A stretch of DNA of 64,000 nucleotides, from the NCBI RefSeq assembly GCF_037042905.1, contig NC_087251.1, positions 9,302,001 through 9,366,000 on the forward strand, given 5' to 3'. The translations under genes and the position numbers were made by a program. The stretch is from Lytechinus pictus (taxonomy: Eukaryota). The notes beneath the pieces were generated by a model. It was not told the DNA's origin and ran no database searches. It saw only the letters and a list, made by a program, of their open reading frames with translations. The first letter of the stretch is position 1. Every line of letters starts with the position of its first letter. This document shows, in pieces, positions 5,237 through 63,075 of the stretch.

Positions 5237-7783
5237 AAACAAAAGGAGTGCCTCTGGCAGTCTCACCTATATCACGCAATTCAATCTAGCAGCAGTGCTG
5301 ACTTTGAAAACTACTATAATCATTCACAAAAAACACAATTCATATAATGATACAATACTATGTTCATTGACAATAAAAGACATTTGAACTTGATCATGCG
5401 ACCCAAGACTTGTCAGTGATACTTGATTACCCCTTTATCCACATTTTATAAACTATATCTATAAACTTTGAATGTTATGACAGCAATCCAATAATTACCT
5501 CCAAAATGGCCAAAGTTCATTGACATTATATGACCATTGACGTTGGTCATGTGACCTGAAACTCGCATGAGAATGTCCAAGATTTATGAACAAGATCCAT
5601 ACACTTTTGGAGTTATGATGGTTATTCACCATGTGGTACTTGATAACTCTTATGTCCAAGTTTTATGAACTAGACCAATACAATTACAGAATTATGATGG
5701 TAATTCAACAAATACCCTCAACATGGCCAAAGTTCGTTGACCTTTGACCTTAGTCATGTGACCTGAAACTTGCACAGGATGTTCAGTGATACTTGATTAC
5801 TTTTGTGTCCAAGTTTTATGAATCAGATCCATAAACTTTCAAAGTCATGATGGTAATTCAACAAATACCCCCAACATGGCCAAAGTTCATTAACCTTAAT
5901 GACCTTTGTCATGTGACCTGACCTCGCACAGGATGTTCAGTGATACTTGATTACTCTTATGTCCAAGTTTTATGAACTTGACCAATACACTTACAGAGTT
6001 ATGATGGTAATTCAACAAATACCCCTAACATAGCCAAAGTTCATTGACCTTAAATGACCTTTGAACTTGGTCATGTGACCTGGAACTCGCACAGGACGTT
6101 CATTCAGTAATACTTGATTAGTCTTATGTCCAAGTTTTATGAACTAGACCAAAAAAGCATTCAAAGTTATGATGGTAATTCAACAAATACACCCAACTTG
6201 GCCAAAGTTCATTGACTTTACATGACCTGTGACCTTGATTATGTGACCTGAAACTCAGGCAGGATGTTTAGGGAATATTGGATGGCCTTGAGTGGGATGC
6301 GTAGAAATATTGTATGAGCTGAAGAACAATATTGGATGAGTCGGAGACAAATCCAATATTGTTTTTCAGCGAGTAAAAATATTTCTACGCATCCCACGAA
6401 AATTTGTCATCCAATATTATTATCATTAACACTAAATAGGTTCATTATTGCGGACTGAAATAATCGCTAGAGGGTATTCATTTGTCTCGCAATCTACTAT
6501 GGTCAACAAGGAAATTCGTGATCAATCTCGCAAAAAGTGTTCACTAGCTTTCTAGGAAATTTGTGATCACTCTCGCAAAAAGTGTTCACTAGCTTACAAG
6601 TTCACGAGCTTTCAAGTGCCGCTGCAACTCTTTATCAAGTGACGAAAATTATCTGATAACGTAGTCTATTTATATCAATCCCCAGGACCGTACGCACGAA
6701 CGCGGGAATAATAGGTAGGCACTGATCCGTTGTGTGATTGGTCGGGCGTTTCACTTTTTGCGAGAGTGATCACAAATTTCCTTGTTGACCATAGTAGATT
6801 GCGAGACAAATGAATACCTTCTAGCGATTATCATTATCATTATTTAGATACCCACAAAGCTAAACATAAATTAATAAAGCAAAAAAAAAGAAGATTTTAT
6901 TTACCATTTTATGTAAATCCTGTAATGAGCATGGCGACTGAGTATTGCCATTTTTCTAAAAAGAAATCTCTGTAGAGTGCGCTAACGTATAGTGCAAGCA
7001 CATTTGAGTTCAATAAACTGACGCAATCTCGTTCCTTTGCCACACCTCCTGGCAACCAATACAGAATGCAATTTTATTGTGACGTAACAATAGCTTCATG
7101 CACACAATCATGTATTAACCAATGATAATCTTGTGGACGGGGCAAAATATTTTTTTTTTAATTTATTTATTTAAAACGGTTTAATTCAACAAGGGTGTCT
7201 ATAGCGGCTGAAAAGCCGAATTGCATTACCCTTTACAATCATTTACATAAAAAATACAATCAATATCAAACAAAGAACAACTGAATTTACACAAATTCTA
7301 CATCTTAAATACACTTATATCACGATATAAATTAAATTAAATAATAAATTGATACTGATAGTACATGCATTTGTTGTAAAATGTTGTTAATTCATTTCGT
7401 CCATGGTTTTCATAGGCATACACGTTAAAAATCAGTTTTAATATTATGTCTCTTTGAAACAACCTTGTAAGACGTCAAAAAATATCTGCACCTCTAAAAC
7501 CCTACATCTAAATAATAACCAGTAATGATTACCCTTATCGCCAAGTTTCATGAACTTGGTCCACATATTTTCTAAGTTATCATGACATTTCAAAAACTTA
7601 ACCTTAGGTTAAGATTTTGATGTTGATTCCCCCAACATGGTCTAAGTTCATTGACCCTAAATGACCTTTGACCTTGGTCATGTGATTCTATAACTTAACC
7701 TTCAGTTAAAATTTGGTGTTGACGCCGCCGCCATCAGAAAAGCAGCGCCTATAATAGTCTCACTCTGCTAGGTGAGACAAAAA
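5237..7783 (+). mobile_element. Helentron/HINE-like non-autonomous element with internal ~120-bp tandem repeats, interrupted at 6269-7519
   Basis: Same 5' end (GCCTCTGGCAGTCTC), TGACCTTTGACCTTGGTCATGTGACCTGAAACTC repeats and 3' hairpin (GTCTCAC...GTGAGAC-AAAAA) as the intact copy at 24091-25266. Confidence 0.8.
6269..7519 (+). mobile_element. Hairpin-headed element A (Crypton-like, no TSD), carrying a nested ~80-bp-TIR MITE at 6461-6830
   Basis: Splits the host unit CAGGATGTT|CAGTAAT without duplication; hairpin 6274-6418; inverted arms 6840-6849 / 7506-7515. Confidence 0.7.
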
Positions 7784-19508: not shown

Positions 19509-22500
19509 TTATCAACAAAAAATTTAGGGGGGGATCATCCCCCCTAATCAAATTTAGGGGGGCAGGACCATATATATATATGCCATATATCAAATGATTT
19601 TTTTTTTTTTTTTCCCTCAAGAAGGAAAAATCATATAAGTTCATTCATTGTCGCAGGTCCACTGTATTTTAATCACTGGAAACGAGTGTAAAACTTAATC
19701 AGGAAATGTAGAATGGAAAATTACCTGGAATTGAACAGAATGACCAGTTTAGGCAAAATGGTTAGCCTTTTAAATACAATAATGGGTGTAGAGTCTGAAG
19801 TGAAAACTTATAATTTAACTCAGGACTGAAAATTTGTAAAAAAAGAAAAACAAAACAAAAAAATAGCAAATCAATGATGACAAAATTTTACACAATTTTA
19901 ATTTCAGCCCAGTTGACACTGTAGTGAATATTATAGGTGACATAAATTGATGAAACAGAAACGAAATTGATAAAGAAAGTATATTTTGTGATCTTTGAAT
20001 AAATTTCGTATGAATTAGCATGAATAATCTTATAGTCAAAATTTCTAAACTCTTGTGTAGAACCTTGGTGAACCTCATGTAGCTCTCAGATGGAACAAAA
20101 TAATCAAATCAATCAACAAATAAATAAGTATTTTTGTGACTTTTGAAAAAATATGCATAAATTAGCATATTTAATGAGTTTCAAAATTCTGTGTTGAAAT
20201 TTTGTAACACCACCTAGAGCTATCATATAAAGCAAAAACAAATTCAAATTGATCAACAAATGAAGGAGAAAATTTTCTTTTTTGTGATTTATGAATAAAT
20301 TTTGCATAAATTAGCATATTTTTCTAGTCAAAATTTAAAAATTCTGTGTGGAAATTTGGTGATCCTCATGTAGCTCTACCAGATGGATGAAAAAAATATA
20401 TAAATTGGTCAACAATTAAAGAAGAAGCATTTTTTGTAATTATGAATAAATTTTGCATAAATAAGCATAAATAATTTTCGAGACAAAATTTTCATAATTT
20501 TGTGTACAAGTTGGGGAACCTTTTACAAGACAACTGGGGTAACTGGGGAAATCCTTGGTGTTGATTGGCAAAGAATCACTAGTCTATGTTACTATGGTTA
20601 TTATACAAATGATGCATGGGTTAGAGTGGGTCAGTAGGAACTGTGTGCACAAGGTAACTTTGGCATAGTTTAACCTACGAGGCGCAGCCGAGTGGGTTTA
20701 GACCATAATGCCAAAGTTACCACGTGCACACAGTTCCACTGACCCACGAAAGAAACCCATGCATCATCTGTTTTATAGAATGGAAAAATTTATTGAACCA
20801 CAAAATTAATGATTTACCGGATGCATGATAATTTCATGCGTCTGGCAAATTCAATTTACCGGACGCATGAAAAAATTTACCAGACGCATGAAAACTCCAA
20901 AATGTAATGCAGACCCTTTGATAACCCTGGACAACATAAATATGTATGCCTAACTTGATAATATGTTGGCACAAAGGCATTATTATACCTAAAATGCCAG
21001 ATACAGCTTTGCATTGACTAACATTAGATCTATGAGGCAGCCTAAGACCTCCAATAGCTGTGTGTGTATGCCCGGGCCGCGCCGGGGGCCAGCGCCTACA
21101 GCTGCCTGGGCCTGCAGTGGAGATTTGGCTGTGCACAGCCAGCCCAGGGCAGTAGATCTAACGTTAGATCGTATGTCTGGACTTCTCAACTAATGAGTAT
21201 GCGGGCAGTTTTAATCCCTATAACAATTACGGTACTGTATTTGTACTAACAGATCATTTTGCATCCTTTATTTGATTCATTCTGCCTTGATCGAAAATTA
21301 AAAATTTTGACGTAAACAAACGTAACAGTACATGCGCGATGACATCACAATGAACTTTCGGGCGATAGCTTGTTTACAGTGGATATCGTTTTGATTATCG
21401 GGATATCGTTCATGCAGCCCAGTAAAAATTCTTGCATAGCTCTCAACCAATCAGATTGCAGGGATTTTCTCATCCATTCTATAATATAACTTAAGATAAT
21501 GACAACTTGTCAATACTGATAAGCTTCATGACATTGTGCAGCAAAATAGGGTGTTATCCCCCACATGTATGTTGGACCAGTAAAGGCACTTCAGGTTCCT
21601 CACACTAATGAAACAAGTCTTACAAAGTCTGATAAGAATTTGAAGTTTAAAAAAAAATGTAAATAATAAAAATAATTGGATCCAATGACAGGGGAGAAAA
21701 ACATGTCTGCAGATAATCTGAGGTGCCAGGGATATCTTGGAAAGGGGAAGGGTGCAAGACGACCTATAGGTGACACCATTGTTTCCCCTTCAATTGAATT
21801 TAAGGGGTAGTATAGGACAGGGAATAATTTTCCTGGTATCGCATTGCAAGTTGCTCCACATTTTTGAAAGACTGCTATGCATAAATTCTTTTGCATAGCA
21901 TATTTTTACATAGGAGTGTACATTACTTAGTTGAGAGCTTTTCTCTTTTAACCAAAAATGCTATTCAAATTTGTTAAGCAAAATTATTCCCTATAGGATT
22001 ATATACGACATCATACTCTCTTTTTTAATTCTCTTCTTTCTATTTATTCCCTTTCTTTCCTATCAACCTTCTCTTTTTATTTACATCATAGGGGGAGGGG
22101 TTTCAATACTACCCCTTCCAATGAAGTTACAAGTGCCTAGATATGATGTTCTTTATTTGCTATACAAAAAGGCAAATATTATTTTCCAGTTTATACAAGA
22201 TCTACAAGTATATGCATCAGGAGTTTATGAAAGCTGAAAAATTCATCTTTTTTCCATCTTGGTATCATAAATTCATTTTACAAAGCTTTACTTTTTCTAA
22301 AGAGAGAAGTTGAAAACAACCTTGAGGAATCATATTTGGGTTTATATTTGTTTTGTGCTGACTGCAATGTGAACAGTATATGTCATCATGTGGTATTAAA
22401 GCACTATATGGGCATCAATCCAGCAGCTGGAGCTCATGAATATTCATATCTCTGTACTCTGTCGGCGATATTGGTAGGCACAGGCTTGGTGCTTGTCCGA

Positions 22501-28500: not shown

Positions 28501-31500
28501 AATTAGCATAAATAATTTTCTACTCAAAATTTCAAAATTCTGTGTAGAAGTTTGGTGAACCTCATGAAGCTCTACCAGATCAAAAAATAAATAAATAAAA
28601 ATCGGTCAACAAATAAAGAAGAAGCATTTTATGTGAATTTTTAAAAATATGCATAAATTAGCATACAAATTTTTCTAATTAAAATTTTAAAATTCTGTGT
28701 AAAAGTTTGGTGAAACTCATGAAGCTCTACCAGAAGGAAGCATAAAAATCAAAATCGGTCAACAAATAAAGAAGGAGAAACATTTTTTGTGAATTTTGAA
28801 AAATGTGCATAAATTAGCATAGTTAATGAGTTTCAAAATTCTGTGTAGTAGCTTAGAATCCCACACCTAGTGCTATCATATAAAGCAAACAGAATTGAAA
28901 TCGGACTTAAAATGATGAAGAAGAAGCATTTTGAAATTGTGGACGGAGGACAGACGGCGGGCGCCGGACACCACGGCATAAGCTCATCTGGCTCTTCGGG
29001 CCAGATGAGCTCAAAATGGCCCAGTCCTCTCTGATGAACCGGGAACTAGGACAAAATGCTTTTAACTAAGGGACATTAGAGCACCAACTTGGTGTTAAAC
29101 ACTACCAACTGAAATAGTAACTGAAGTATCACACCCTCCTCTTGTCATCATACATCAAATATCTTGTCATTTCAATAAAAACTAAATAGAATTGTTTTTT
29201 ATTGTTTTTCATTCAGTACGTGGAACTGCACCACAATACAATTGTTGCATGGTAATTCCTTACAATTCCTCTCGCAACTATAAGGTCTGCTAGTTCATCC
29301 TTACTTGCTGGACATACCACAATCTCATAATTCATGGGGGGTTGATCATTTCAATATGCTGGCCATTCCTATGGAATAAACTTCCAAAAGACATCCACAA
29401 TATTTCTTGTCTCATCAAAAATTCACTGAAAACCTGGTTATTCACACAACTTTCTTCCCCTTTTTAGGTTTCCATTTTTTTCTTCTTTTCTTTACTGCGC
29501 AATAAGCATATTTTTATGATGGATACCGGTGCATTACAAATGTCCATCTATTTATAATCTAAGGATCCTCTTTGTACTGGTACAATTATAGAACCCTCAA
29601 AGTGTATTATTGTAGATGCATTGCTCCAACATAAATTGACAGGTCAGACTGCCATCTTAATCTGGCTAAAGACTGTTAGATATACTCAGATAGATATATG
29701 CCTACACTCATAAAAATGTTAAGAAATTTGAGCTTGATCAAATTGTTGTCTTATCTTATTAAATAATTGTATCATATATCAATGATTGAATTTAGCATCT
29801 CTCTGGTTGCTGTGTATGTTTAATATGAACATTTACATAAATTATAACAAACCTGTTAGCATTTTGTTACTTTGTAACATACATTTTTTATTCAACTTTA
29901 TTTTTCTATTATTAATCTTCCCTTTTTCTGATGGGGGGGGGGGGGGCTTCCTCAGTACTTCACCAAACAATAAATTTAAACTATCGAAAGAGGAACAAAA
30001 AAAGTCATGGAGACAGTATAATTTAGCCAAAGCACAATGCTTGACGAGAAATCTGCCCTGAGGTCTTTACAAAGAAACTGAAATCCCCATCTGCAAGACG
30101 GGTGAAGCAGAAATTAGTATTCTAGAAAATAGAATACTATTAAGAGATTTCCCAGGAGTTGCAAACACTCCTGTGAATAAACAAGGCAAAGGTATTTCAT
30201 TGTCATGTCATGTGTGTGTTTTCATTATGTAGACACCTATCATTAAGAAAATTAAGAAATTAATTGCCACAGATCAATCTTCAAATTTATTCAGAACAAA
30301 GCGGACACATCGTACCATGGGACCTCAACAATATTCTATCTTTAATTGACCTTTAAACCACCTGTGGAATATGTTAGTTGGTTAAAAGATCTGTACATGT
30401 AGTTTAGGCATGAATTGCCTCATATAGCAACTAAAAAATTAGTGTGTAAAAGCTGAAGTTTACTGTTACAAGTATTACACTTCAATATCTTGAAACATAG
30501 TACACTAACATATCAACCCTTTACGTTCAGGTTGTTGAATGTAATGCTGTACATTACAACAAACAATGAAGAATGAAAATAAATCTGTCACACAGAGTGA
30601 ATTCATACACACATTTTCAAAAGTCCCCAATGTTAAGGTGAATAGAAAAGTTAATTTCAGGACTTTTTTATCATAATGATACGTTGATATACAAAGATAT
30701 CAAATCTATCCAACGGCTATGTAGACAGGGCTGGTATGAGGGCAAATTTGTTATTTTTTCATAAATCAAATTATCGTTTACATTTTCAAATTTACAAAAC
30801 AGAACTGTTTCCAAGAAAAAGCAAATTCTGTCTTTCTGTGGTTTCTTGAAAATGAATGTTCAAATTAGCTGTAAAATGCAAATGGGCCTTAAAATGTTTT
30901 GTGATCAAGTGCTTATTTAAAGGACAAGTCCACCCCAACAAAAAAGTTGATTTGAATAAAAAGAGAAAAATCCAACAAGTATAACACTGAAAATTTCATC
31001 AAAATCGGATGTAAAATAAGAAAGTTATGACATTTTAAAGTTTTGCTTAATTTCATAAAACAATTATATGCACATCCTGTTGGGTATGCAAATGAGGAGA
31101 CTGATGACGTCATCCACTGACTCACTATTTCTTTTGTATTTTATTATATAAAATAGGGAATATCCTATTGTCAAGTGAAACAACGATTAATTCCTCCCTG
31201 AACAATTGGAATGAACATTGTTTAATACTATATGATTCAGTCAAGTTGGTCCTTATTGTCAAATCTATAAAAAATGAAATATTGTATAATTCAAACAATA
31301 AAAAACAAAAAACGAAATAGTGAGTGAGGGACATCATTGACTGTCTCATTTGAGTTTTGCATATCACTGTTTTGTGAAAAATAAGCAAAACTTTAAAATG
31401 TCAAAACTTTCTTATTTTTACATCCGATTAAGATGAAATTTTCAGCATTTTGCTAGTTTGATTTTTCTCTATTTATTCAAATCAAAATTTTTGTGAGGTG

Positions 31501-37500: not shown

Positions 37501-40500
37501 GGTAAAATCATTTGTAAATTTTCAAAAAATGGTACCTAATGGAATTCCCATTAAATGATATATGGGGGAGCTGCTCACATGCAACAATCAAAATGGAAAA
37601 CTTAAACAATTGATAAATCTGTCATTCTCATCCCTATTCTAAAGGTCAAGTCCACCCCAGAAAAATGTTGATTTGAATAAATAGAGAAAAATCAAACAAA
37701 CATAACACTGAAAAATTCATCAAAATTGGATGTAAAATAAAAAAAGTTATGGCATTTTGAAGTTTTGCTTATTTTTCACCAAACAGTGATATGCACAACT
37801 CAGTGACATGCAAATAAGTAAGTCGTTGATGTCCATCACTCACTATTTCTTTTGTTTTTTATTGCTTGAATTTTACAATATTTCATTTATTACATATTTG
37901 ACAATAAGGACCAACTTGAATGAACCAATAGTATTAAACAATGCTAATTCCACATGTTCAGGGAGGAATTAATTGTTGTTTCCCTTAACAATGAGGAGAA
38001 AATTAGAATATTTCATATTTCAAATAATAAAATACAGGGATGCCAGTGGGTAGAGAAAAAAAATAAGGAAGGTCAAAGCTTGGCACGCCGACCCGCGAAT
38101 CATTTGCAGTTCGCTTGATGCGTTAACATTGTTGGGTGCCCAATGGGCACTTGTATGGTATAAGATACAGACATTTCAATACTAAAAAGAGATGTGATTT
38201 AGGCCTAAATAAAAAAAATATCCCTCTCCTTTTTCACAAAATACATATTTTCTGCTGGATCTAGTTGACCTGCAATTATGGAATATCATCTCAAGGTAAT
38301 TTCCATTCATATCCCTGTAAAGAAATGACATGCATGTGAACACTGAATAGAATGTTAGAGTGGACAACACATTAAATTTACCATTTGTTTTTTATCCCAA
38401 AGTCTATTTTGGATATATTGGCACTCCTGTCTATCTCCATCTTGAACAGTTGAACTCAAAATTCAAAATTAAAAATCCACCAAATCCACCGAGTGTTCAG
38501 TCGTTAGATCACTTTCCATATCCTGTTTAGTGTTAGCATGTTAGGCTTGTATCCACACAAATTTAAGTCTTTGTATCAAATATAGTTCGCAGTTCACAAC
38601 TTCCAGATGCATGACATATATCTACATAAATCCAAGTCCTTTTATCAAAAAATAAATGCAGAAAATTAAACAAACAGCGAGTAAGAAATCGCACGATCGC
38701 GAGTAAGAAACCACGCCGCACAACTGACAAGCGGACCAAGCGGATACGGGCTCAAGGCTTCCCCACATCTTTGGGGTACGTAGACACAGCAATCTCCGCT
38801 CAAAAATCAGCTGCAAAATCCTTCCACGCGGATCGCGTGAGCTACAAAACAGAATGCGAGCGCTATACACTTTAATGTAATGCTGTCAAGCCCTCGCGTT
38901 TTGCGAGCGCTTTATACAAATGAAAGATGAGAGATGGAAAAAGAGGGGAAAACCGGAAATATTCAGAAATGTTTACACAAAATGGAAAAAAGACGGAAAA
39001 CTGACATCCCTAAAAATACAAAAGAAATAGTGAGTGGATGAAGTCATCGGTCTCTTCATTTGCATATCATCCAGGATGTGCACATATCTGTTTTGCGAAA
39101 TTAAGCGAAAATTTAAAATGTTATAACTTTCTTATTTTACATCCGATTTTGATGAAATTTTCAGTGTTATGCTTGTTGGATTTTTCTCTTTTTATTCAAA
39201 TCAACTTTTTGTTGGGGTGGACTTGTCCTTTAACTGTGATTTTTTCAGACGAAGTCTCTGATGGGAAAGTTCTGATGTTCTTAAACTTTGTACCAAAGAT
39301 GCGCAAGAAACATCATGAAAAAATAACTTCACTGTGGCATTGATGTAGTGTAGTCATAAAATTTTGAATGAGGAGGGATTGCATTCCCTCTCATTCAAGG
39401 ATTAATGGGTTTTTACCTAGCCTTTTTTTTCTTTTTTTTTCAAAATCATAGTGAATTTAAAGGGATGTTCCAGGCTGAAGATATTTACATCTCAGTGAAA
39501 TTCAGAGCAAAATGCTGAAAATTTCATCAGAATCAGATAACAAATAACAAAGTTATTGAATTTTAAAGATTTGCATTATTCCGGTAAAACAATTCTAGGC
39601 ATGTCTTCATGAATATTCATAAGGTGGGCTGTTGATGTCACATCCCCACATTCCTTTTACTTATGTTATTACATGAAATCATAATTGTTTCATTTTTTCA
39701 TAAATGTTTAAATGATGTGTCTCCATTATGATGAAATAAGTTGTAGCAATAAATAACTCATGCACTTTATCATTTGTCAGTTCAATTGTTTTAGTTCTTG
39801 TTACATTTTTTTTAACAAACCTTATTTCCTATAATAAAATAAAAAAAGAACAAGTGGGGATATGACATCATCAGCCCACTAAGGAATATTCATGAAGACA
39901 TGCCCAGAACTGTTAATAATGCAAATCTTTAAAATTCAATAACTTTATCTGTTATCCAATTTTTATCAAATTTTCTGCATTTTGCTCTGTGAATTTTACT
40001 CTATTTAATTTTATTGAGATATAAATATCTTCAGCCTGGAGCATCCCTGTAAGGGTGAGCTTCCCCATTGAATGACAAACTTCTTCAGTCAAGGGCCATT
40101 AAGTCTTTAAAATATGTGCATGAATCTTACCTGCAAGGTGTACTTGGATGAAAGAAGAGACAATCACTGCCATTCTTACAGGCTGGCCAAAACTTACATC
40201 TCTCATTTACTTTCTCTTCCATTTCAACATGTTCTAAAACAAGGCATATAAAAAAAAGGAGAATAGAGTCATTACAAGCAACGTTCGTGAGAGTTTGGGG
40301 AATATATCAAAAAGGTAAAAAAAAATAGAATGAAAGTATGACAAATAGTTCAAGTTTTAGTTATTTTTTTCTAAGCAACTACAATACCATCTTTAGTTGA
40401 AATAACAGATGAATTTAAGGTAAGAATATCTAAATGAGGAAAATAATCTAATGAAAGGAAATTTTTATTTGATCATATACCACACAGGATTATACACTTC

Positions 40501-43500
40501 AATTGTTTATTTGAATTTGACATCACAAATAACCCATCAAGAAAGAGAGAATAAATGAAGATTATACATTTTTTATCCACTATTCATCTACCCTGATCTT
40601 CTAAAAAATGATAAAAGTTAAAACAGGTTAATTTGGAAATAGAAATAACAGCATTTATCTGGATTTCATTGGGATTTCTGGTTATTTTGCCCTAAAAATC
40701 TATAGGTCATTGTTGATACAGTAATGGAAAATATACTAATACTAATAAAAATCAGAAATAAAATGTATACATACTTTGCATAATCAAAACTGTGCAAATA
40801 TTTTTGTGTGCGTTACTTGTTGTTTTCCTTGTATTGGTGTGGGTGTTTTGTCTTCCATAACAGACTATAGCTGACGTTTCATGTAAAGCAAAGGCCTCCA
40901 CCTATATTCTAGGCTAGTGTTTGCCAACCTTTATCTTCTGGGAAACTTATGTTTTTCAAAGATTCTTCAATTTTTTATGATTGCTTTATGTTATGTTTTG
41001 TACTTGTGACCAAAGAATATAGACTTTCAGAACACAGAATTTGCTATTTAAAAAAAGGAAAACAAGGGTCTTTAATATAGACTGAAAGAAAGTACCTTCA
41101 TCAGACTCCTGTAGTGAGAATGTTACAGGTGCAATCTGAGGGTGAGGAGGTGAATATAAAGAATCTTTAACTGGTTGATGTTCACTAGGACCAACTTGCT
41201 TTACTGGAACCTCCTTCCGTATCCGTGATGAGCTCTCTTTTATAATGACCTATAATGAAAAGGAAAAAAAAACATAAAACCAGGGGCCGTATTCTGAACA
41301 TTGTCTTTTCTCCATATTTTATCTTTTCTCAGAGATATGACAAAATCGGTATTCTGGTGGATGTCATAACTTTTGTCCCAAAAATTGTCATAAATTTCGT
41401 CTCTTCTCTTAAGCGCGCACCAAAAATATGCGGCTTTAAATGCGCGTAATCCTTTTATACAAGCAAAAGATATGACAAAAGTTATGACAGGGGGTAGCAG
41501 TCATAAATTCTGTCATATCTTTTAGTACCAAATATCCCGATACCCTGCCGACTAAATGTCAAGCAAATAATGATATTATTTAGATTTGATTGTGGTATTA
41601 GTTTCACTCATCATCCATGACAATTTTCAGAATTATTTTTTCATGCTACAATTAATTAGGCCCTACATATTTATTCCTCCTTTTTTTTTCTCTGTTTTCC
41701 TTCTTTTTCTACTTCTCCTCTAAAATCCTTCAAAGCTCCCTGTCTCTCTTTGTAATTAAGCAATATACGCGTAGTTGCGCGATTCCAGCAACTGTTTGGG
41801 GGATACGCCCTATCTGCCACGGGGCCTTCCTATTGGCTAGAAGGGCTCCCACTGGGAACTAACAATGATTTTGATTGGTTTTCTTCCGAAAAGATGGGCA
41901 GGAACTTTGAGAGATATGACAGGGAAAAGACAATATTCAGAATACCGATTTGTGACAATCATAGCGGTGTCATATCTCGGAGAGAAATGACAAAATTTAT
42001 GACAAAAGTTATGACAGTGTTCCAGAATACCACCCCAGGTCAGCAAAATCAGAGGAATATAAATGCAGGTATGTATAAATAAATTACCGTAAAAACACAC
42101 AGTCTGATTTGTTCTTCAAAGAACAGATGAAAAGATTTATTCTAAAAAAAGAGTTCCAATTTTGATGAAGATGCCATTTCAAAAATTAATAAATCAACAA
42201 GATGAATTTAGAAAAATCAAGCAGTTAAATTGGAAAAGAAAGTTGAATGATATTAAACAAGAAATTAACCGTAATAATATTCATTTTATAAAAAATTCAA
42301 TGACCAATATTACACTGAACTAGTGTGTAATTATTTCTGGATGATATTACAATACATGCGATAACTGCTTTCTGTAATCAAGATATGTTCATGGTCATCA
42401 GTTTTTCTTTTTCGTTATAGTTCACTTTTCATACTCAATATTATATGTTGACAAATTCATTTTGCTTCTACTACTAAATATCATGGACCGTCTTACAAAT
42501 GAATTGTGATAGATTGAATGAAAAAAATAAAAATGAGATTGATCTCAATTTATATCTCTTTATTACTCATTTTGAGATCAATCTCAGTTAAAATTTGAGA
42601 TAATTTTCAGTTAGAATTTGAGATCAACTCAGTTTGAATTTGAGATCATTCTCAGTTTAAATTGAGATCACTCTCAGTTAGAATTTGAAAACAATCTCAA
42701 TTTGAATTAAAGATCTTTCTCAATCAGAATTTCATATCAAATTCAGTTTGAATTTAAAGGTCAAGTCCACCCCAGGAAAATGCTGACTTGAATAAATAGA
42801 GAAAAATCAAACTAGCATAGTGCTGAAAATTTCATCAAAATCGGATGTAAAATTAGAAAGTTATGACATTTTAAAGTTTCGCTTATTTTTAAAAAAACAG
42901 TGATATGCACAACTAGGTGACTCGGACGATGATGTCCATCACTCACTATTTCTTTTGGTTTTTATTGTTTGAATTATACAATATTTCATTTCTTATAGAT
43001 TTGACAATAAGGACCAACTTGACTGAACCATATAGTATTAAACAATGATAATTCCACATGTTCAGGGAGGAATTAATCGTTGTATCACTTGACAATGAGG
43101 AGAATATTGGAATATTTCATAATTCATATAATAAAATACAAAAGAAATAGTGAGTGGATGACGTCATAGTCTCCTCATTTGCATACCAGCCAGAATGTGC
43201 ATATAACTGTTTTGTGAAATTAAGCAAAACTTCAAAATGTCATAACTTTCTTATTTTACATCCGATTTCGATGAAATTTTCAGTGTTATGCTTGTTGGAT
43301 TTTTCTCTTTTTATTCATATCAACTTTTTGTGGGGTAGACTTGTCCTTTAAGTTCAATTTCACTTTGAGTATGGTATGAATCTATCACAACTTTTTGTGA
43401 GACAAGCCCCTAGTCTAATAGAAGTACCTGCTGATATTGCATTGGTTGAACTGGTTCGTAATCAAACCCTTTTTCTTCCAAAAAATCCATCTCCATCTCT

Positions 43501-46500
43501 TCACTTGGCTCATACCGAGAGAGAAGGAACCGTTGATTTGGGTCCAGCTGGGAGATGGATGTAGGGCGGTATTGAGTAGACATGGCAGGTACTTGTTTAG
43601 CTGTACCTCTGGCATTGGGACGAATATTAGACCTCTGTTTTTTACCCTCCATGGTGACGATAAATCGGGGGCTGGAGTCCTCTGGTGCAGGAGATGGGGT
43701 TTCATAGACTTGAGGCTGAGCAGGTGGCTCTCTGATGAAATTAAATAAATAAAAACATGCTCTTTAATGCTATCCAGTTCAGAAGGGGGTTGAGGACCAA
43801 GGGCTGTGAAGGTGTCTGTCTCAGTGTTGTTATTGAAATGAAATAATATACAAATAATGAATGTTTATGAGTGCAGTGGACAGAATACTTCATGAGGTGA
43901 AAGATGAAATGATCCATTTAACGAGGCGTAGCCGAGTTGAATTGATCAATATTTCATCTTTCGCCGAATGAAGTATTCTGTCCATTGCAAGAATGAAAAA
44001 ACATTCATTATTTGGTATATATGACACATAAGAACAATTTTTTTTTTTCATATGAAATTCATGAATTTCGATGCAAAAAATGTTCATGCAGTGCGAGTTC
44101 GGTCTGTTGATTGTTACGTCATTACAACGTATGAGCTGCAGTCTCGATGCGCGAGTGCAATGGACAAAATCGTATGGATCCAAAATTGCATGATGAATGG
44201 ATCCAAAATTGCACGGTTGATGACGTCATTACAAAATGGGCTGAATGAACGCTATCAAATAACCAATCAAATCACAAGGATCTATCTAGGTGTCACATAA
44301 TCTTGAATACTTGATGCTGTTTAATTAATCAACAAAGGTAAATTAATGAAATATCATTGATTGCACTTATGAGGGAACTCATGTTTGGGGTTACATGTCT
44401 GATAAATGTAACCAAATCAAATTGAATATGAAGAGTGTATTTTAGAAAGCATGCAATAATGATTTTTCACTCTTGTCAAATACAAAATATAAGTAAAGGA
44501 CGGACGGACAGAGGAACCAATAATATAATGCTTCCAGCAATCATCTATGGTGGACAGAGGCATAATTACATTGTTCAAGAATGCTACATCATTCTTCCAC
44601 ACAATACAAAACTTCTGTTTACCTTTTCATAAGAGATGTAAGCCTATCAAACTGAAGAGGTCTAACTATGGTGGTATTCCTGGTGTCATATACCGGTTCC
44701 TGTATCTCCATCACTCTTTCATCCTCTTCAATTAGTTCTACAACCTTCATTTCTTCCTCATCACATTCCACAACAACTACCGCTTCTCCTTTATCTGTTT
44801 CCATGGTATTGATTATCTGACGTTGATCTGCAATTATGAATACATTCATCAAGAAATTGATTGTTAACAAAAATAAATATGATTAAGCTTGAGAGATTCT
44901 ATTATCTTAGGGGATTATTTTTGACAAAGAAACCACTATATTATTCAACTAATGATATAAAAACATATGCAATGTGATTGGAGTGACAATACCTTGTGTT
45001 CCATATTTTGGGGAAATTCACTCTTTTTTAACGACATAACAATCCATCTAGTGACATCGTGTGTCAACTTCCAGCTCTCTTTACAAAAAAAAAAGATTAA
45101 GATGAAGACACCAGGCCTTAAATTCCAATATTTTTAGGGCAAAGCTATTCCTTCCTATTATGCACAAAAATATGTAAGGTCAATTACAGGGGCACCAAGT
45201 CCAATCAATAGGGAATACATGGCCTTTGAGTGATTTAAGCCCTAAGACACTACGACATACCTATGGGGAGACTATCCCATTAGATACTGTGTTATGTCAT
45301 TTTCCTTTTTGAGATATGAGTAATGTTACCCACCATCATCATCTTCATCACTTTCCTCTGTGCTGTCTGCTGCTGATCCTTCCAACTCAATTTCCTTTTC
45401 AACATCATCATCTTCCTCCACTTCCAGATTCTCTTCTACACTCTCTTGCTGCTCCTCCTCCAGCCCTTCCTCCTCTTCTGCTTCAGCCTTCTTCTCAACT
45501 CTTTGGTAGGTATGTGCATCAAAGTCTCTCTCATTAGCTTCCTTAAAACGGGATCTAGACATGAGACCAAGAGGTCTGACAGTCACAGAGGCTTTTGTTG
45601 ATGGTTTAGGAGCAACTTCAGCCTTGCTTGCCTCCCTCACAGCTACTGCAAACATTTTCTTAGGTGCTGCTTGTGTCTTGCTGGAAGGCTCTTTGTCAGC
45701 TGGGATAGACCTACAAGTGATAGAAGAGCTCTAGATATCAAATATAGATCCTGTCATGCTACTTTTAATGTATTTCTTAATAGGATACATTTAAATGAGA
45801 CGGCAGTGTGGACGTTTATTAAGCCATTAAAGAAAGCAAATTCTTAAGAATAACTTGACTATGGCAAGACCAACTCCTATCTTATTTGCATTAGCTGATT
45901 TTGAAATATGTAGAATTTACAGTTTTACATTTTCAGGGAAAGTAATATACTTTGCCTCAATGTAAATGAAATGATAATGGATGAATGACATTGTTGGTTG
46001 TACCTGCACAAGGCCATGTTGTGAATTGTTTCATAAAATTGAGCAAGAAAACACATGGCATTAATAAAAATTTTGTTTGATTTTCTTTTATTATCATTCA
46101 AATCGACCTGTTGTACGTGCAGACTTGGCCTCTAATATCTGATGTATATTCTATATTGAACTAAGAGAACAAACTTTAACCTTGCTTCTACAAAAAAAGA
46201 GAAGCAATCATTTTGCAAAGTGAAATTTTGGTGTAAGGACTGTAACCATATTGAAACTAATTCATACCTAGCAACTATCTTCATAGTTCCCGACTGGCTA
46301 GCAGATCTAACAATCATTCTCCTTGGTTCTGCAAATTGACCTGCAGCTGGAAACACACTTGTTGACTCCTGCGCTTGTGTCATAGCTTTCTTCAACAATG
46401 CCATGCTGTTCTGTTTAGTCTTTGGTAAGGGCTGTCTGTGGAAACAAAAGCAATTATTCAAATATTTTATTTCCATTAGATGTAATATCAATAAAACAAA

Positions 46501-49500
46501 TAAGGCAGAAAGCAGAATTGGACACAAAGTAGAGCAATACAGATGAAATCAAAACAATGCTATTATGATAAATTGATTACATAGAAATGCCAGTTATGGT
46601 AGCAATTATATAAAAATGTGTTTGAACAAATTCAATTAATTACCACCTCATGTTTCTGTTAGTAAAATATGTGCCAAATAATTTTGGCAGAAAATGTGAG
46701 AAAATATAATAAGGCAATCCATTCAGGTGTAGGGTTTTTATAAAAGCAATAATAATACACTGTCCCACATGTACTTATCTGTGTTGGTGATCTTCAGAGT
46801 GATCACCTTTTCAGCATATAGATTTCACGATTTATAATATACGATCTGGTGACAGCTAACCTTGATTTCATGAAATAATTCGTCGGCGGTCATCCCAACA
46901 GTCGTATAACACATATGACGGTGCAAACCCATTTCAGAGATAATCGACTTCAAAGTTTACTATAATTTTCACACTTAGTTCCCCAGCCTTACAACATATT
47001 CATTGCTTGAAAAATACATGGTTGGAAAGACCAAGAAAATTGCTTGACATTGGTATCTTTATTTTTACACAAAACTAAGGATCCGAGAAAATATGGCAAA
47101 AGAGCTACATGCTTGTAATTTCGGTTTGAGCGACTTAGATTTTCCCTGTACAAAAAGGCCATAGGGAAAAAGCGATACGACGTTTTGACTGACCGCGATA
47201 TCAATACGCGCGATCAGTCAAAACGTCGTATCGCTTTTCACATGCAAAGTCAATGCAGTGCCCAGTGCTGATACGACGGTTTCGTTGACCGCGCGCATTG
47301 AAATCGCGGTCAGTCAAAATGTCGTATCACTCTGTTACAGTACACGTTTCCAATGGGATTTGTGTATTTCATTTTAAATTTGTATGGCATCGCCATAAAA
47401 ATCCTCTCATATCTTAGAAAATAAAATAAATTGCTGCCTAGAAATTTAGTTAAGAATAGAGAAGGACTTGTACTGTCATTTTCTGCAAAAATCTCAAAAT
47501 CAATTTTTTGACCAAAATTGACTGATAAGACGGTCCGAATGACCGCCGACGAATTGTTTGCTACAACTATTTCATGTATTCCCCATGTTTATGTAAAAAA
47601 TGATTTACAAAAGTAATCATTTATGAAGAATACTAGAAACAAATAGAAACAAACTACATTAAGGTATTGATTTGGCAAGCCTGTACCTTCTTCGTGGCTT
47701 GACAGTGCTGGCTACTCTTTTGACCACTGGTTCATCATCAGAATCCTCTTCTTTGCCTTCAATAATTTGACCAATGACAGACCCTGGACCTGGCCTTTTC
47801 ATGGATACAATCTACAAAAATAAGACACACAATTAAAATCAGTTAACTCTTTGAGTGCTTCATTTGCACCATTATACACCTGTGGACTTTTTTTCATTTG
47901 TAATGAATGTATTTACTGTACAATGCCTATTTGCTCTGGGATAACCAGATTCTCTGTACTGGACTTTCTATTATCCAATACTTTTAGACATTTAAAGTTC
48001 TGTATACATGACATGTATGATTAATTATGCAGTTATGCATTCATTCTTTATTTCAAGTCGAACATAAGATCATAGTTTATTGGTCCATTTTACGTTTGGT
48101 GTAAATTGATCTCATTTATGACCTACTAAGGAGGTGCTTCTAAGGATACATTAACTTTCATAAACTCTAAAGGGAAATTTTTTTTTATTTTCTAGAAAAA
48201 AAAATCAACATATCCTTGTGAGGTAAAAATGATACACAGGAAGTTAAAAGGGATGGGGAGAAATCAATAAGCCCTCCTCATCATAGACAATACCCAGGTT
48301 CTGAGTTTGGGTCTCTAAAACAGTTAAAACGACATTTGCTCCTGGGACAATTGCTCTAGGCTTTATTCCTTTTAAGATGTTGGGTAAGGGTTAGGGTTAC
48401 AATAGGGTTTTACGTTAGGTTTAGGGTAGGTTATAGTTTTCAATCCAAGATTTAATTTAGTCATTCAATTAGTGTGTGGAATTTACAGCAGAACAAATGT
48501 CACAGGAGCAAATGTCTTGGAACCCTAAAAAATTGTATTTTTAGTTTTACATAGGTTAGCTTATAAAAGGGAGATCCCCCCCTAAAAAAACAAAAACCAT
48601 GACATTTTCAATATTTAGTCAAAAGTTTCAAAATCAAGACTTACTGGTACTTTGACTACTGTTGACATTGTAGTGAAGGTCCTTCTCCCCTCCATTTCTG
48701 TTTTTCTTTTGATGGCAGGAACACCAAGGCGTGACTTGACTGAGCCTCTAGCTGGAGCAGACTCTGGACTAACTTTAGCTTGCATCCTAGAGCTACCTCC
48801 ACCCATAGTAACAGTGATGGGAAGAGAATGCTCCCTTGTTGCTTTAGGTAACACTTTGACTTCTTTGGCTTTCTCTTTGGGTGATGTCTGTGGTTGCAAT
48901 GCAACAGTCTGGACTTTGACCTTGCCTTTCACTTGTGTAGGCTTTACAGAGTCAGTAGCAGCTGGTTTCTTTGCTGCTTCACTCATCTTAATCTCTTCAT
49001 CCAAGAAATCATTAGTGTCTGGGATGAGGGATATTACAGGTTGAGTTGAGGAAGGTGCTGGTGCAGACTCTGAAGAAGTTTCTGTGCTTATTTTGGGAGC
49101 AGCCTGTGCAGGTTTCTGACATGTTTCATTAACAGGTTCACTGATCTGGGTGACTTCAGCTAATGGGGTCATTTCATTTGGTTGTTGTACAATATCTTTC
49201 TCAGCTGATGATTTGCTCCCTTCTTCATTGTCATCTGCTTTGCTCTCACTTGTAGACCGGTGTTTCTTATCTTTCTTTTCATCTTTTTTCTTACTTTTTT
49301 TCTTCTTGTCTTTAGATTTTTCTTTCTTCTCCTTCTGTTCATCCCTTGCTGCTTGGAGCTTATTGAGGACACCTTGAAGCCTTAAAAGTAACAATGATAG
49401 AGGCACAAGAAACATATATATTGGCATACATGCAGACTACAATCTGGCTCCCATCCATTCTATAAAGCATTGAGTCTGACTATTCAACAGTGCTAAATTA

Positions 49501-52466: not shown

Positions 52467-52985
52467 TAGCCAGGAGGCTCCTAGAGACTATTAATCAGTC
52501 ACTAACGTTAGCTTTCTCTCCACGAAGCCAGGAATTGTGCCTATATCATGTACATAGAGATTTCTACTTTCCCTGTAAAAGTTCTAGCCCTAAATCATAT
52601 AAATGGGCAAGAACTTCATTATAGAGAGAGGTAGACGTTTGCCGCCCTATATATGCGTCTCTAAGCTTAGCTACCAACAAAGAGGGCAAGATGACGGCAT
52701 AAACATCAGTAAGTTAAATCTCATCTTCTCATAATTTTTTTTTTTTTAATTCATATTGTTTTAAAATGTAATCAATAATGTATAAATGTTGGAAATTAAG
52801 TTCCAGCCCACTTACATGACTTACAGCTAGAACTTTTACAGGGAAAGCAGAAATCTCGGGGGGGGGGGGGGGGGGGTTCAATTTTGCCTGTCCTCTACCC
52901 ACATGATATAGGCACAATGACTGGACCTGTGGAGAGTAAGCTCACGTTAGTGAATGATTTTTACTCTCTTGGAGCCTCCTGGCTA
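52467..52985. mobile_element. TAGCC...GGCTA long-TIR element (Academ-like termini)
   Basis: TAGCCAGGAGGCTCC... mirrored by ...GGAGCCTCCTGGCTA over more than 100 bp. Confidence 0.7.
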
Positions 52986-53034
52986 ACGAAAGATGGTCCT
53001 TGCAAAGACCGTTTCGTGCAATCGGCCCATGGCC

Positions 53035-54591
53035 TAGCCAAGAGGCTCTAGAGAGTAAAAATCATTCACTAACGTATGCTTACTCTCCACGGAGCCAGGG
53101 ATTGTGCCCAATTCATGTGCATATACCGTGGTCAACATTGCAATTTTCGCCCACAAGATTTCTACTTTCCCTGTATAGAGTCTGCTGCCATCTATAAGCG
53201 TCTCATAGCTTAGCTACTAACAAAGAAAGAAAAATGGCGACGTAAACATCAGCAAGTTTTTTCTGTTTCTGTTTCTGTTTATGGTAACTCCCGTAAGAAC
53301 TCGGCAGGACAGCATTTTGCTGGTAAACGCCAAGCTGGTATATAACCAATTACCTAGGAAACATTTTACATCTAGGTTAATCAGTCATAGTGGCTGACGT
53401 TATAGACGACAGATATCACTCTCGGGCCTTTTTATCAAAGTGGAGACGACATCTGGCAGAAATATATTTCTTTTTTTTAATATTTGTTTAAGAATGAAAT
53501 CAGTTACATGATTTTGGGCTAGATCTCCTACAGAGAAAGTACAAATCTCAGGGGCGAAAATTGAAATGTTGACCGCACTATACTTATGGCAGTGAGTCCA
53601 AACTTCGCGTCTGACCATACTTTGCGGAAGGTGATTATCTAAAAAACTAGCCATTATCCTTAAAATCTGACAATGTCAACGTGAAAAGTGACTTAAAATT
53701 ACCCTTTGGCATAAGTTTCTTTAGGATGGGTTCAGTATTCATGAAAATATTGACAAAAGATCGGCAAATTTGTCACCGTATGCGCCCGTACCAAAGAAAT
53801 CTGAAATTCTGAACAAGCATCACGATATCATCATTTTGCAAGCAGATAGGCCTATAATAAAAAATGTGAGTTTGATGGGGTAGGCCCAACCGACTGATTC
53901 CATAGCACTTTGTCGTTAATCTGATATAAATCTCTCACCTTTTGAGCTTGAGTTTTTGTTTAAATCTCCACAAAAACTTTGGTCTGCAAAGTTATGCCAC
54001 CCATGCATTCGTCGATCGGGATAGAATTTTGAGATCGAGATACCGCGAAACCCGTTGACCTACTTCACATTTTTGTCAATGATTTTATAATAGTTCTACA
54101 ATCCTGCCGTCAATGTGGTAACTATTTTTTAAATTTGTTTTGTATAAATGTGGAGCGTTGTGGCCCAGTGGATTAGTCTGCGGACTTTGAAACAGAGGGT
54201 CGTGGGTTCAAATCCCAGCCATGGCATAATTTCCTTCAGCAAGGAATTCATCCAGTGTGCTGCACTCGACCCAGGTGAGGTAAATACATGTAGGTACCAG
54301 CAGGAAGTAATTCCTCAAAAAGCCATGTGCACCTGATCAATAGGTAGCCTAGCTTAGCCGGGTAATAATAGCAGGGCCCGCTGGGAGAACAGTTTCGGAA
54401 CTGAAGTGGCTACCCTGGGTAAATATACTGTTATTATTAATTGTGAATATTTTGTGAACAAATTGAAGCCTGATTAATATTTTTGAAATGTCCTCGTAGT
54501 TTGGACACCCCATCATACATGAATGGGGCACAATCCCTGGCTCCGTGGATAGTACGCACATGGTATTGAATGATATTACTGGCCTTAGCTA
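53035..54591. mobile_element. Longer member of the same TAGCC family, hosting a SINE
   Basis: Left arm ...CTCCACGGAGCCAGGGATTGTGCCCAATTCATG mirrored at 54518-54591. Confidence 0.65.
54152..54439 (+). mobile_element. tRNA-derived SINE
   Basis: A box TGGCCCAGTGG, B box GGTTCAAATCCC, core TGTGCTGCACTCGACCCAGGTGAGGT shared with 2033-2312, (TTA)n tail. Confidence 0.9.
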
Positions 54592-55400
54592 CCTGAAGAC
54601 ACGGACCAGGCCGAGGACTGAGGTAGGCGATGTTTGGAATTGTAAATTGTATCTTTGTTTTTTTGCTGATGAAGTCATTTCGGCAAGAGTTCCAAGGAAG
54701 TTTTAACACAACCTTGAGTTAGATCCAGGTCATACGGTCTTAATTAGACGGATATTCAAAAAATATTATGAAGCGATGTTTGCAGACTGCTTGATTTGAA
54801 AATCCACAACCACAATCCATTGTGTGTACTGTATTACCGACCGTCCTTGTATTACAGAACGAAAGCGTACATTATACGCGTCAGAAAATAATTTCATACG
54901 CTCAAAACTTTGCATAGATTATATTCTAGAATCTAATCCTTCCAAAGCCCGGGAACTTGAATTGAAAGATGATGAAAAATGTTCAAAAACATATTTTCAA
55001 AGTCTTTATATTCTCAATAAAATAAAATATGGTTTAAATAGATCACCAGTCATGCCAGTGATTTTGCTGTTTTTCTCAACTTTTCCCATTGAAACACACC
55101 TTCGGTAATATACAATACCTTTTTCAAATCAAGTGACGTGACCAAAATATTTCACATGCGAAGAGGTGTCCGATCAATTAGAAGCTGATCGTAAAAAAGA
55201 AAACAATTTCGACAAATACTAGTAACTAGATCTAGAATAGATTTATATTTTGTTGGTATTTGTAGGTAATTACGGTGAAAGTTTGGTGAATTTCATGTGT
55301 TTGATGTGATTGTGTTCGGTAATACCAAATTGGCAAACACAAATTTAGGGTCTTCGATCCACTGGCAATGCCATGCAATGGCACTAGGCTACTTAAACCC

Positions 55401-55899
55401 AGGGAGCTCCGGCCTGCAAAGCGGGCCGGAGCCCAGGAGTCCACCGTGCATTTAGACATAGACACGGGACTTGGGTAGATTGGGGTCTCAATAACTTACT
55501 TTAAAAAATGTGAAAACAGAAATTATGCACTTACCACGATTATATGGATGAAGGTCTATCATGTGACAGCATCCTGACATCGAGGCACAGACTGGAACCT
55601 CAAAAAAACGAAAAGTTCTGTTGCGATATACCTCTCCTTCTTTCAAATTTCATAACAAAATGGCCGATCGAGACTGGGGTAGAAGGAGAGGTATCGCGAC
55701 AGAACTTTTCGTTTTTTTGAGGTTCCAGTCTATGCCTCGATGTCAGGATGCTGTCACACGATAGACCTTCATCCATATGTGCATAATGTCTGTTTTCACA
55801 TTTTTTTAGTAAGTTATTGAGACCTCAATCTACCCCAGTCCCGTGTCTATGTCTAAATGCACGGTGGACTCCGGCCCACGAAGCGGGCCGGAGCTCCCT
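55401..55899. mobile_element. ~500-bp foldback element
   Basis: Arms ~55401-55640 and 55682-55899 are near-perfect reverse complements. Confidence 0.9.
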
Positions 55900-56579
55900 T
55901 GGTTGTAGACCAAAAGCTTCGGTCTCTGTAATGTTGGTTGTTCCGCTGAACTCCGTTGACTCCACTCACCAAATACAGACACTGAAGTTCTAGCGCGATC
56001 TGTACAGAGGACTCAATGGCCATATGTTTATGTATTAAGTTCGGATAAAACAGGGAAGTGAAGTTGCGTGACAGCAAAAGTAAGTCTCTGTTTTTTCCCC
56101 TTTTAAGTTGATTTTTCCCCGTTTTGGTGCATTTCAGGACAAAACGGAATTCCAATCTTTATTTTGATTTTTGGTTAACCCAGTTGTTGTGTGTCTGGAC
56201 AGGTTGTGTGTCCGGACGATCAATGTTAGAAAGACATTTGGAAAAATTTACAAGCGAAGTTTCATCAATTTTTAGTACAAAGTGTTAGGAAATATTATAG
56301 AGAACAAAATAGAAGATGATTACAACTATTGAATTCATATTTTTAGTGTAATCCAAAGACAAAAAAGAAGGCTTCAAAAATATAAAGTGTCCGGACACCC
56401 GACCCCCCATCCTACAGTTCTATTTATATATTTTTATGAAAAGACAAAAATCGATGAGCCCCGTCGGGGGATTTTGCATTGTTAACCCCCAAATGGTGGC
56501 TGCACGATAGCGAGCCGTCTGTGTACGAGAAATAAAAAAAATATAAAATGTTAAAAAACTCCTCGAAACAGACGGCTGC

Positions 56580-62620: not shown

Positions 62621-63066
62621 TAGACAGCTGGCAGCCGTCTGTTTCGAGGAGTTTTTTAACATTTTTTTTTTTTTAATTTCTCCTCGTACACAGACGGCTC
62701 GCTAGCGTGCAGCCACCATTAGGGGACTTGCAATGCAAAATCCCCCCGTCGGGGCTCTTCAATTTTTGTCTTTAATGAATAAAAATTTTGAAAATTAACG
62801 CGACCAAAATGCAAATTAATATTCCCTCTTGGCATTAATTGCCAAAAAACGGAGAAAAATCAAGGTAAAAGGAACAAAAACAGTGACTTACCTCGGCTGT
62901 CGCGCAAATTCACTTCCCCGTTTTATCCGATCTTAAGTACATAAACATATGGCCATTGAGTCCCCTGTACAGATCGCGCTAGAACTTCGGTCTCTGTATT
63001 TGGTGAGTGAAGCCAACGGAGTTCAGCTGAACAACCAACATAACAGAGACCGAAGCTTTTGGTCTA
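62621..63066 (-). mobile_element. TAGAC...GTCTA element copy 3
   Basis: Reverse complement of copies 1 and 2, without the copy-2 interior. Confidence 0.85.
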
Positions 63067-63075
63067 GACTAAGCT

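Follow-up and report, generated by a model that had tools for sequence, protein, structure and literature searches.

In a 64,000-nucleotide stretch of the Lytechinus pictus genome (NCBI RefSeq assembly GCF_037042905.1, contig NC_087251.1, positions 9,302,001 to 9,366,000 of the forward strand; hereafter the window, numbered from its first letter), we identified element C (43847..44300, + being the strand with the tandem GA/GA pairs), a 454-bp transposon whose end folds into a long hairpin that contains the complement of the element's own joined ends. Its classification as a non-autonomous CryptonA element, which is based on DUF3504, element size and host, is supported by the existence of recombinase-bearing elements with the same ends; it belongs to a known superfamily, is neither an integron nor a DIRS element, and has an end structure that is apparently undescribed. 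From the fold and the insertion footprints, we lean towards a mechanism in which the Crypton recombinase would exchange one folded + strand and replication would finish the insertion, as for integron attC sites and the CTX phage.

The hairpin of element C and its joined ends

Folded as DNA, positions 43840-44030 of the window form one long hairpin (-55.3 kcal/mol, z = -14.2), and none of 200 shuffles was equally stable. The left arm (43847..43927, + strand) begins with TATACA, the fixed overlap segment of the element, and is followed by a GTA triloop (43928..43930, +) and the right arm (43931..44005, +). The triloop is closed by a C-G pair, is of the GCGNAGC mini-hairpin type and lies in a GGC-GTA-GCC cap. 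GA stands opposite GA at an outer site (43869..43870, + strand, opposite 43991-43992), a middle site (43894..43895, +, opposite 43966-43967) and an apical site three pairs below the loop (43923..43924, +, opposite 43934-43935); in this copy a third G.A pair adjoins the outer GA/GA through a point change (C in the family, A here). The initial annotation had described this long stem, its three GA/GA sites and its cap, all borne out by the DNA fold, and had placed the start of the element at 43846, which we correct to 43847. GCGNAGC and GCGNNAGC form unusually stable mini-hairpins in DNA, and for GNA mini-hairpins the stability in DNA far exceeds that of the RNA form tested (PMC13037366). The loop motif GAGGCGNAGCCGAG occurs 313 times in the 812-Mb genome versus 4 times for its reversed control, and 29 of the 30 loci examined have a long hairpin. 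Chance or a simple repeat as the origin of the hairpin was ruled out by the shuffles together with these counts.

The base of the right arm and the short arm that follows it are together the complement of the element 5' end and then of the 3' end. This internal complement of the circle junction (44006..44029, + strand) pairs with the 5' end and also with the 3' end 270 bases away, GTGTCACATAA (44290..44300, +; family form GTGTCATATAA), which forms the left half of the circle junction. The initial annotation had reported a short arm, TATATGACAC at 44018-44027, and its inverse at the far end; both are where it placed them, but the short arm is no separate repeat, being part of the complement of the joined ends. 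The 3' and 5' ends of an element are adjacent only in a circle or a tandem, and because the internal arm pairs with both of them, the circle junction lies inside the stem. In every family located, between 9 and 15 consecutive bases of the 3' end pair with the internal arm (13 in the family copy L004) across 0.3-2.5 kb, and although the 3' ends differ between families they still pair with it. The joint itself is unpaired, with nine bases in the junction arm against seven in the internal arm in families C, B, D, G and J; in this analysis family I was not found and the row for the locus L245 was spurious.

Twelve families were compared through one hand-picked representative each, oriented by the element 5' end and not by the GA pairs. 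Mismatches were counted from +7, independently of the 3' ends, of which those of F, I and K were misplaced (for K the script also had no true 5' end). Tandem GA/GA occurred 25 times on the element strand and TC/TC not once, and G.A pairs numbered 77 as compared to 3 C.T pairs. The stems differ across all twelve families, and 15 of 60 pairs in aligned C and D copies have changed on both sides, almost all of them reflecting the split between C and D; with that qualification, covariation, too, agrees with the earlier proposal that structure rather than sequence is conserved. Within family G, 21 of 23 copies keep the GA polarity. In the two flipped copies the arms have been homogenised and the outer GA/GA lost, and because such homogenisation erases GA/GA, its retention elsewhere points to selection.

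Several copies are rearranged. The flipped apex in L104 was rejected as a counter-example, as it concerns 2 of 23 family copies, both rearranged; L094 is also rearranged. Traces of template switching include the hairpins of L211 and L212, flipped end for end with identical arms, and an internal duplication in L094. The C copies at L286-L296 and L245 have lost various small segments from the tip of the hairpin, which would be expected if it formed and were cut in vivo. A K-turn RNA reading was rejected by inspection, because the bulge does not adjoin the GA pairs.

Copies, recombinase partners and insertion footprint

Element C is a dispersed transposon. At least 40 other full-length copies share 86-92% identity with it (40 of 1500 candidates were scored), and the exact 16-base 3'-end pattern of family C has 394 genome matches, possibly including some reverse matches to internal arms, as compared to 1 for the control. 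Its boundaries are sharp in 31 aligned copies, with TATACA at 43847 and ATAA at 44300. Contigs from three of four public runs contain the empty site, skipping exactly 454 bases and leaving one copy of a 5-base sequence, ATAAT, which lies at 43843..43847 (+ strand) and again at 44297-44301 in the occupied allele, so that its five letters fit either side. Because most other family C copies lack such a flank repeat, ATAAT is a shared target or junction sequence rather than a family-typical duplication. A second empty site was sought at locus L025, where one flank was uncovered, and no joint was found. Aligned ends and flank logos ruled out both a miniature inverted-repeat transposable element (MITE) with terminal inverted repeats and a true target duplication; ordinary duplications, together with autonomous partners encoding a DDE transposase or Rep/helicase, had been named beforehand as grounds for rejecting the initial reading, and none of the refuting outcomes named there was seen.

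A genome search with DUF3504 returned 30 matches, of which two lie 1.3 kb from a loop motif. Each long element has a single open reading frame (ORF), which matches DUF3504 (Pfam PF12012) and, in most cases, Phage_integrase (PF00589). Of 10 aligned proteins, 8 retain all of the residues R186, K215, H306, R309, H332 and Y341, and the remaining two are truncated or deleted there. The partner of family B, L091, is 2390 bp long with a 478-codon open frame; that of family A, L259, has recombinase fragments between A-type ends; and that of family C, L245, has C ends (5' end 85% identical over 182 nt, 3' end 90% over 87 nt) that flank a recombinase gene interrupted by a 126-bp repeat (L245 3148-3274), its hairpin loop being deleted. 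The 126-bp repeat is a high-copy sequence, 97-99% identical to many other loci. Since such partners, L245 included, carry the same ends around a tyrosine recombinase, element C is best regarded as a non-autonomous CryptonA, in agreement with the initial annotation, which had taken these elements for non-autonomous Cryptons and had looked to autonomous partners to decide the matter; L245 is a broken relative of family C. The scan of 14 recombinase frames showed no reverse transcriptase, DDE transposase, Rep/helicase, HUH or extra C-terminal domain. Of three other frames scanned, one encodes a reverse transcriptase and lies beyond the 3' end of the L091 element; a DIRS or LINE link from such frames was rejected because they are outside the element. 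Of 63 recombinase loci, 38 have a long hairpin past the stop codon, on the non-coding strand, as compared to 8 of 63 with one on the promoter side (background, 6 of 37 window bins with a long hairpin). In the loci examined, including L091 and L245, the GA strand runs antisense to the mRNA of the recombinase.

Family C inserts into quasi-palindromic targets of the form ATA-N8-TAT. At the left boundary, element positions +1 to +6 are 92-99% fixed and flank position -1 is at 38% (n = 90), whereas the right flank is variable from +1 (45%, n = 69), with T87, A72 and T58 at +8 to +10, mirrored by A66, T79 and A81 at -4 to -2 of the left flank. In 51 rebuilt targets the dyad axis falls between +3 and +4 (0.466, versus 0.257-0.382 at 25 other axes), and a single crossover is seen, one base into the 8-bp spacer. 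An 8-bp spacer with a 6-base overlap is the layout of tyrosine-recombinase sites such as loxP and dif, and because of the position of the dyad axis, which gives a 6-base overlap, the layout of family C sites is, judged from these alignments, that of a tyrosine-recombinase site. On each strand, tyrosine recombinases cleave at the 5' boundary of the overlap; the observed crossover would thus be the + strand cut, on the same strand as GA/GA.

Two exchanges with unmatched overlaps would leave about half of the copies ending in ATATAA+TATACA+flank. With a slightly different pattern from that used for the ~394 3' ends, nine such strings were found, of which eight are head-to-tail tandems and one is not. 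Among loci picked by the loop motif, the second-strand product was present in none of 28 non-tandem intact 3' ends (8 of 37 without an intact ATATAA having been dropped), and TATACA was kept in 39 of 45 5' ends, the other 6 being without it. In all four families tested, the target half-site starts at +8 and the best match within the element at +9, so that a junction in double-stranded form would have one base too many; the distinct target preference of family B matches family B's own TGA, and the triplet at +9 in the left arm of element C is likely a recombinase half-site.

Among 153 5' ends examined there are eight same-family and two mixed head-to-tail junctions. In the mixed stacks, a family-E element directly follows the 3' end of a family-D element in one case and of a family-G element in the other (L095, on the minus strand from 3999; L104/L082), an arrangement reminiscent of cassette arrays. 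In L091 (1738-2141 and 4700-4935), an autonomous B element is nested in a non-autonomous D element; the remaining end of the latter appears in inverted orientation beyond a (TAG)n run.

Proposed mechanism and its competitors

In the mechanism that we propose, the + strand, once single-stranded or extruded, would fold by virtue of its long stem, its stable loop and its sheared G.A pairs. The internal arm would then align the 3' and 5' ends, which the recombinase would join into a single-stranded circle, and the junction of the folded circle would resemble a double-stranded site with a mismatched centre (9 versus 7 bases). One strand exchange with a chromosomal target could follow, the mismatched centre hindering a second, and host replication would resolve the junction, so that copy number could rise. 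The initial annotation had cast the end as a folded single-stranded recombination site; the one-strand footprints support this idea, which we continue to infer. To our knowledge, no eukaryotic case of folded single-stranded DNA recombination by tyrosine recombinases has been reported. We find it somewhat probable that integron cassettes and CTX have their eukaryotic equivalents in animal CryptonA elements, each of which would excise and integrate as one folded DNA strand. This would be a third and independent origin of folded-strand recombination, in which the site would exist only in the pairing of junction and internal arm, with G.A pairs and loops selecting the strand. If so, this would account for the clean excision of Cryptons together with copy gain, as seen for active CryptonF (PMC9977147), provide a structural signature for annotating them, and offer a eukaryotic system in which a single protein inserts single-stranded DNA with no double-strand break. 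The exact ends, the target consensus, the likely cut strand and bond, and the open recombinase frames with intact catalytic residues make the mechanism testable with oligonucleotides and one protein.

A number of our own observations weigh against exchange of a folded strand. The invariant C-GNA-G loop and invariant, strictly periodic GA/GA pairs of the initial annotation proved overstated: GNA loops occur in only 7 of 12 families (the others have GTGA in one, gCTTGc in two, gCGTGc in one and cTTTAg in one), and all three GA/GA sites in only 4 of 12, where their spacing is roughly regular at 22-29 nt. The families share ancestry, so the family counts are not independent events, and G.T pairs (16) do not significantly outnumber A.C pairs (8; p = 0.15) across the twelve. 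The joint spacer is 9/5 in family F and ambiguous in our script for A, E, H and M. By ViennaRNA the + strand (-58.5) is favoured over the other strand (-54.4) by only ~4 kcal/mol. Because the loop region is deleted in L245 and in all nine C copies drawn from a search with L245, a biased pick, the apex is fragile and may be dispensable. The hairpin is missing from 25 of 63 recombinase loci, many of them fragments, and the sole empty site seen is that of element C. The recombinase is no closer to the integron integrase IntI than to Xer (the IntI profile TIGR02249 scored 20 bits versus a cut-off of 265, matching at profile positions 211-310 only, and the confidence of the structure model is below 50 in the I2-relevant region). 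Fold matches of that model, a weak one (pLDDT 55.8), were QRICH1, Cre and XerA; a Protein Data Bank sequence search returned XerA-like proteins only, and a plasmid protein search gave generic integrases, none named IntI among the best 25 matches. One-strand footprints also arise on double-stranded substrates, as with the VGJ phage and the strand-biased circularizing (SE) elements (PMC4246890 and PMC9345347).

The proposed exchange is best judged beside known systems. Integron attC sites (PMC4792948 and PMC2727003) likewise have a long imperfect hairpin, conserve structure over sequence, favour one strand, have an unpaired centre at the crossover, undergo one exchange and give head-to-tail elements. 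The differences are that here the site spans the junction of the circle, in a self-contained transposon that encodes its recombinase and has dispersed targets, and that the strand is marked by tandem G.A pairs rather than by single extrahelical bases, with no I2 domain shown here. The attC mechanism is proven, whereas we infer that of Cryptons. The attC R boxes (RYYYAAC/GTTRRRY), an attI platform and IntI were not found; the ends are TATACA and ATAA and the copies are dispersed. In CTX attP(+), on which XerC/XerD act, ~150 nt of folded single-stranded DNA turn two sites that are unusable as double strands into a functional one (PMC4246890), and a single exchange is followed by replication, no special recombinase domain being needed (PMC4792948). 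CTX is unlike Cryptons in employing host recombinases, one target (dif) and rolling-circle replication without excision, whereas Cryptons have their own recombinase and many targets. SE elements and the VGJ phage share with Cryptons a tyrosine recombinase, one-strand exchange and a 6-bp crossover region (PMC9345347 and PMC4246890); the six bases of SE elements are donor-derived and these elements lack inverted repeats (PMC9345347), whereas here the six bases are a fixed part of the element and its fold is conserved.

Like the families described here, published CryptonA elements (PMC3212892) have a single DUF3504/tyrosine recombinase ORF, occur as autonomous forms of ~2-2.7 kb and as commoner short derivatives, and show neither terminal inverted repeats nor a true target duplication; what sets ours apart is the 165-nt hairpin, the internal junction complement, the defined target and the one-strand footprint. 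In that study, no terminal repeats were found for animal Cryptons, all CryptonA rows read 'n.d.', and the word hairpin is absent (Kojima and Jurka 2011, PMC3212892). The Glomhopper paper mentions neither a hairpin nor single-stranded DNA. Eulor5/6 are classed as Crypton (PMC5753468). Our literature search, outside which lie Repbase Reports, Dfam and subscription journals, found no description of such end architecture in Cryptons, and Repbase entries may note the palindrome. A similar hairpin may be present in Eulor5/6.

Of the alternatives, the one that survives best, which we regard as possible but rather unlikely, is that the folded strand would only splint the circle as in DIRS elements, perhaps also serving as a second-strand origin, and that a double-stranded circle would integrate by one exchange and replication. 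DIRS elements are tyrosine-recombinase elements with single-stranded DNA intermediates and an internal stretch complementary to both ends, a layout that is essential there (PMC7192593). The VGJ phage does integrate as double-stranded DNA with one exchange (PMC4246890), GNA/GNNA mini-hairpins are present at priming sites of single-stranded DNA phages (PMC13037366), and the one-strand footprint would be accounted for equally well. Against it, the double-stranded junction is out of register with the targets by one base in all four families, and a splint should match the junction perfectly: in DIRS elements, which have a reverse transcriptase and inverted terminal repeats, the region is 88 bases long and exactly complementary (PMC7192593), whereas in the Cryptons, which have no reverse transcriptase inside, it is ~24 bases long, continues into the hairpin and keeps a mismatched centre exactly at the crossover.

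We consider it doubtful that these elements follow the classical Crypton route, in which a double-stranded circle would undergo two exchanges over a short shared sequence and the hairpin would be a by-product of template switching or have another role, such as an excision cruciform, a transcription end or a silencing RNA. This is the published model (PMC3212892, PMC9977147); according to a 2026 review, it presupposes a circle of double-stranded DNA, and Crypton transposition still lacks an experimental demonstration (PMC13565253). The five shared bases at the element C junction fit this route, and template switching does act on the arms, as the two flipped copies and the apex deletions indicate. 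But most targets have little in common with the junction over +1 to +6 (5-12 of 28 at each position), the copies carry no variable coupling bases, and no more than one of the ~394 ends could be a second-strand product. Template switching removes mismatches and so cannot account for the 25 versus 0 bias in GA/GA, while an RNA role sits poorly with a GA strand that is antisense to the recombinase mRNA and with mini-hairpins that are far more stable as DNA.

Finally, that an HUH enzyme acting in trans (Helitron-, Replitron- or IS200/IS605-like) would move these elements, with the recombinase as a passenger, is very improbable: IS200/IS605 elements do have strand-specific hairpins, single-stranded circles and no target duplication (PMC13565253), and eight head-to-tail tandems would suit such an enzyme, but the long elements hold one tyrosine-recombinase ORF with no HUH or helicase in the 14 frames (Helitron proteins were not searched genome-wide), and targets are dyad-symmetric around an 8-bp spacer with a half-site preference that follows the family, as expected of a recombinase dimer.

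Other elements and neighbouring features

Two further families are represented in the window. Element B (20602..21484, + strand) is non-autonomous and belongs to a second family; its hairpin is nearly the same as that of L091, the autonomous form of this family. Element A (6268..7518, +), of a third family, is split by an unrelated inverted-repeat insert at ~6430-6830, which lies just after the hairpin and has 80-nt arms that are 96% complementary. Both had been credited with the layout of element C, and as members of two other families they do share it, except that element B has two tandem GA/GA rather than three and that AACCAATCA was not found in element A. In element C, AACCAATCA lies at 44261..44269 (+ strand), and the same core occurs ~120 bases before the start codon in L091 and ~230 bases before it in L245; it is likely a CCAAT box left over from the recombinase promoter. 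Five family-A copies (L123, L124, L132, L137 and L138) with a common left flank lie within 40 kb at G000:C2:48927811-48966005, and represent a tandemly amplified unit that includes the element.

Exon-like open frames, some of them acidic, flank element C on the minus strand (43410-46548), and this copy seems to sit in an intron of a minus-strand gene. Other long inverted-repeat, MITE-like elements in the window lie at 62941-63201, 55396-55904, 42777-43329, 52467-53582, 39091-40052 and 30938-31494; one of the MITE-like repeats is a near-perfect 126-nt palindrome. Elsewhere in the genome, the strongest DUF3504 match is in three exon-like pieces at G000:C4:6934690-6937264 (L061, L073 and L083), likely a domesticated host gene of the WOC/ZMYM type, and clusters of decayed recombinase fragments lie at G000:C4:23886451-24071958 and C8:17522452-17926842. 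Just upstream of the family-F recombinase frame, a 22-nt inverted repeat occurs three times (L100 3707-3784, L101 4430-4507), and these repeats are possibly self-regulatory binding sites.

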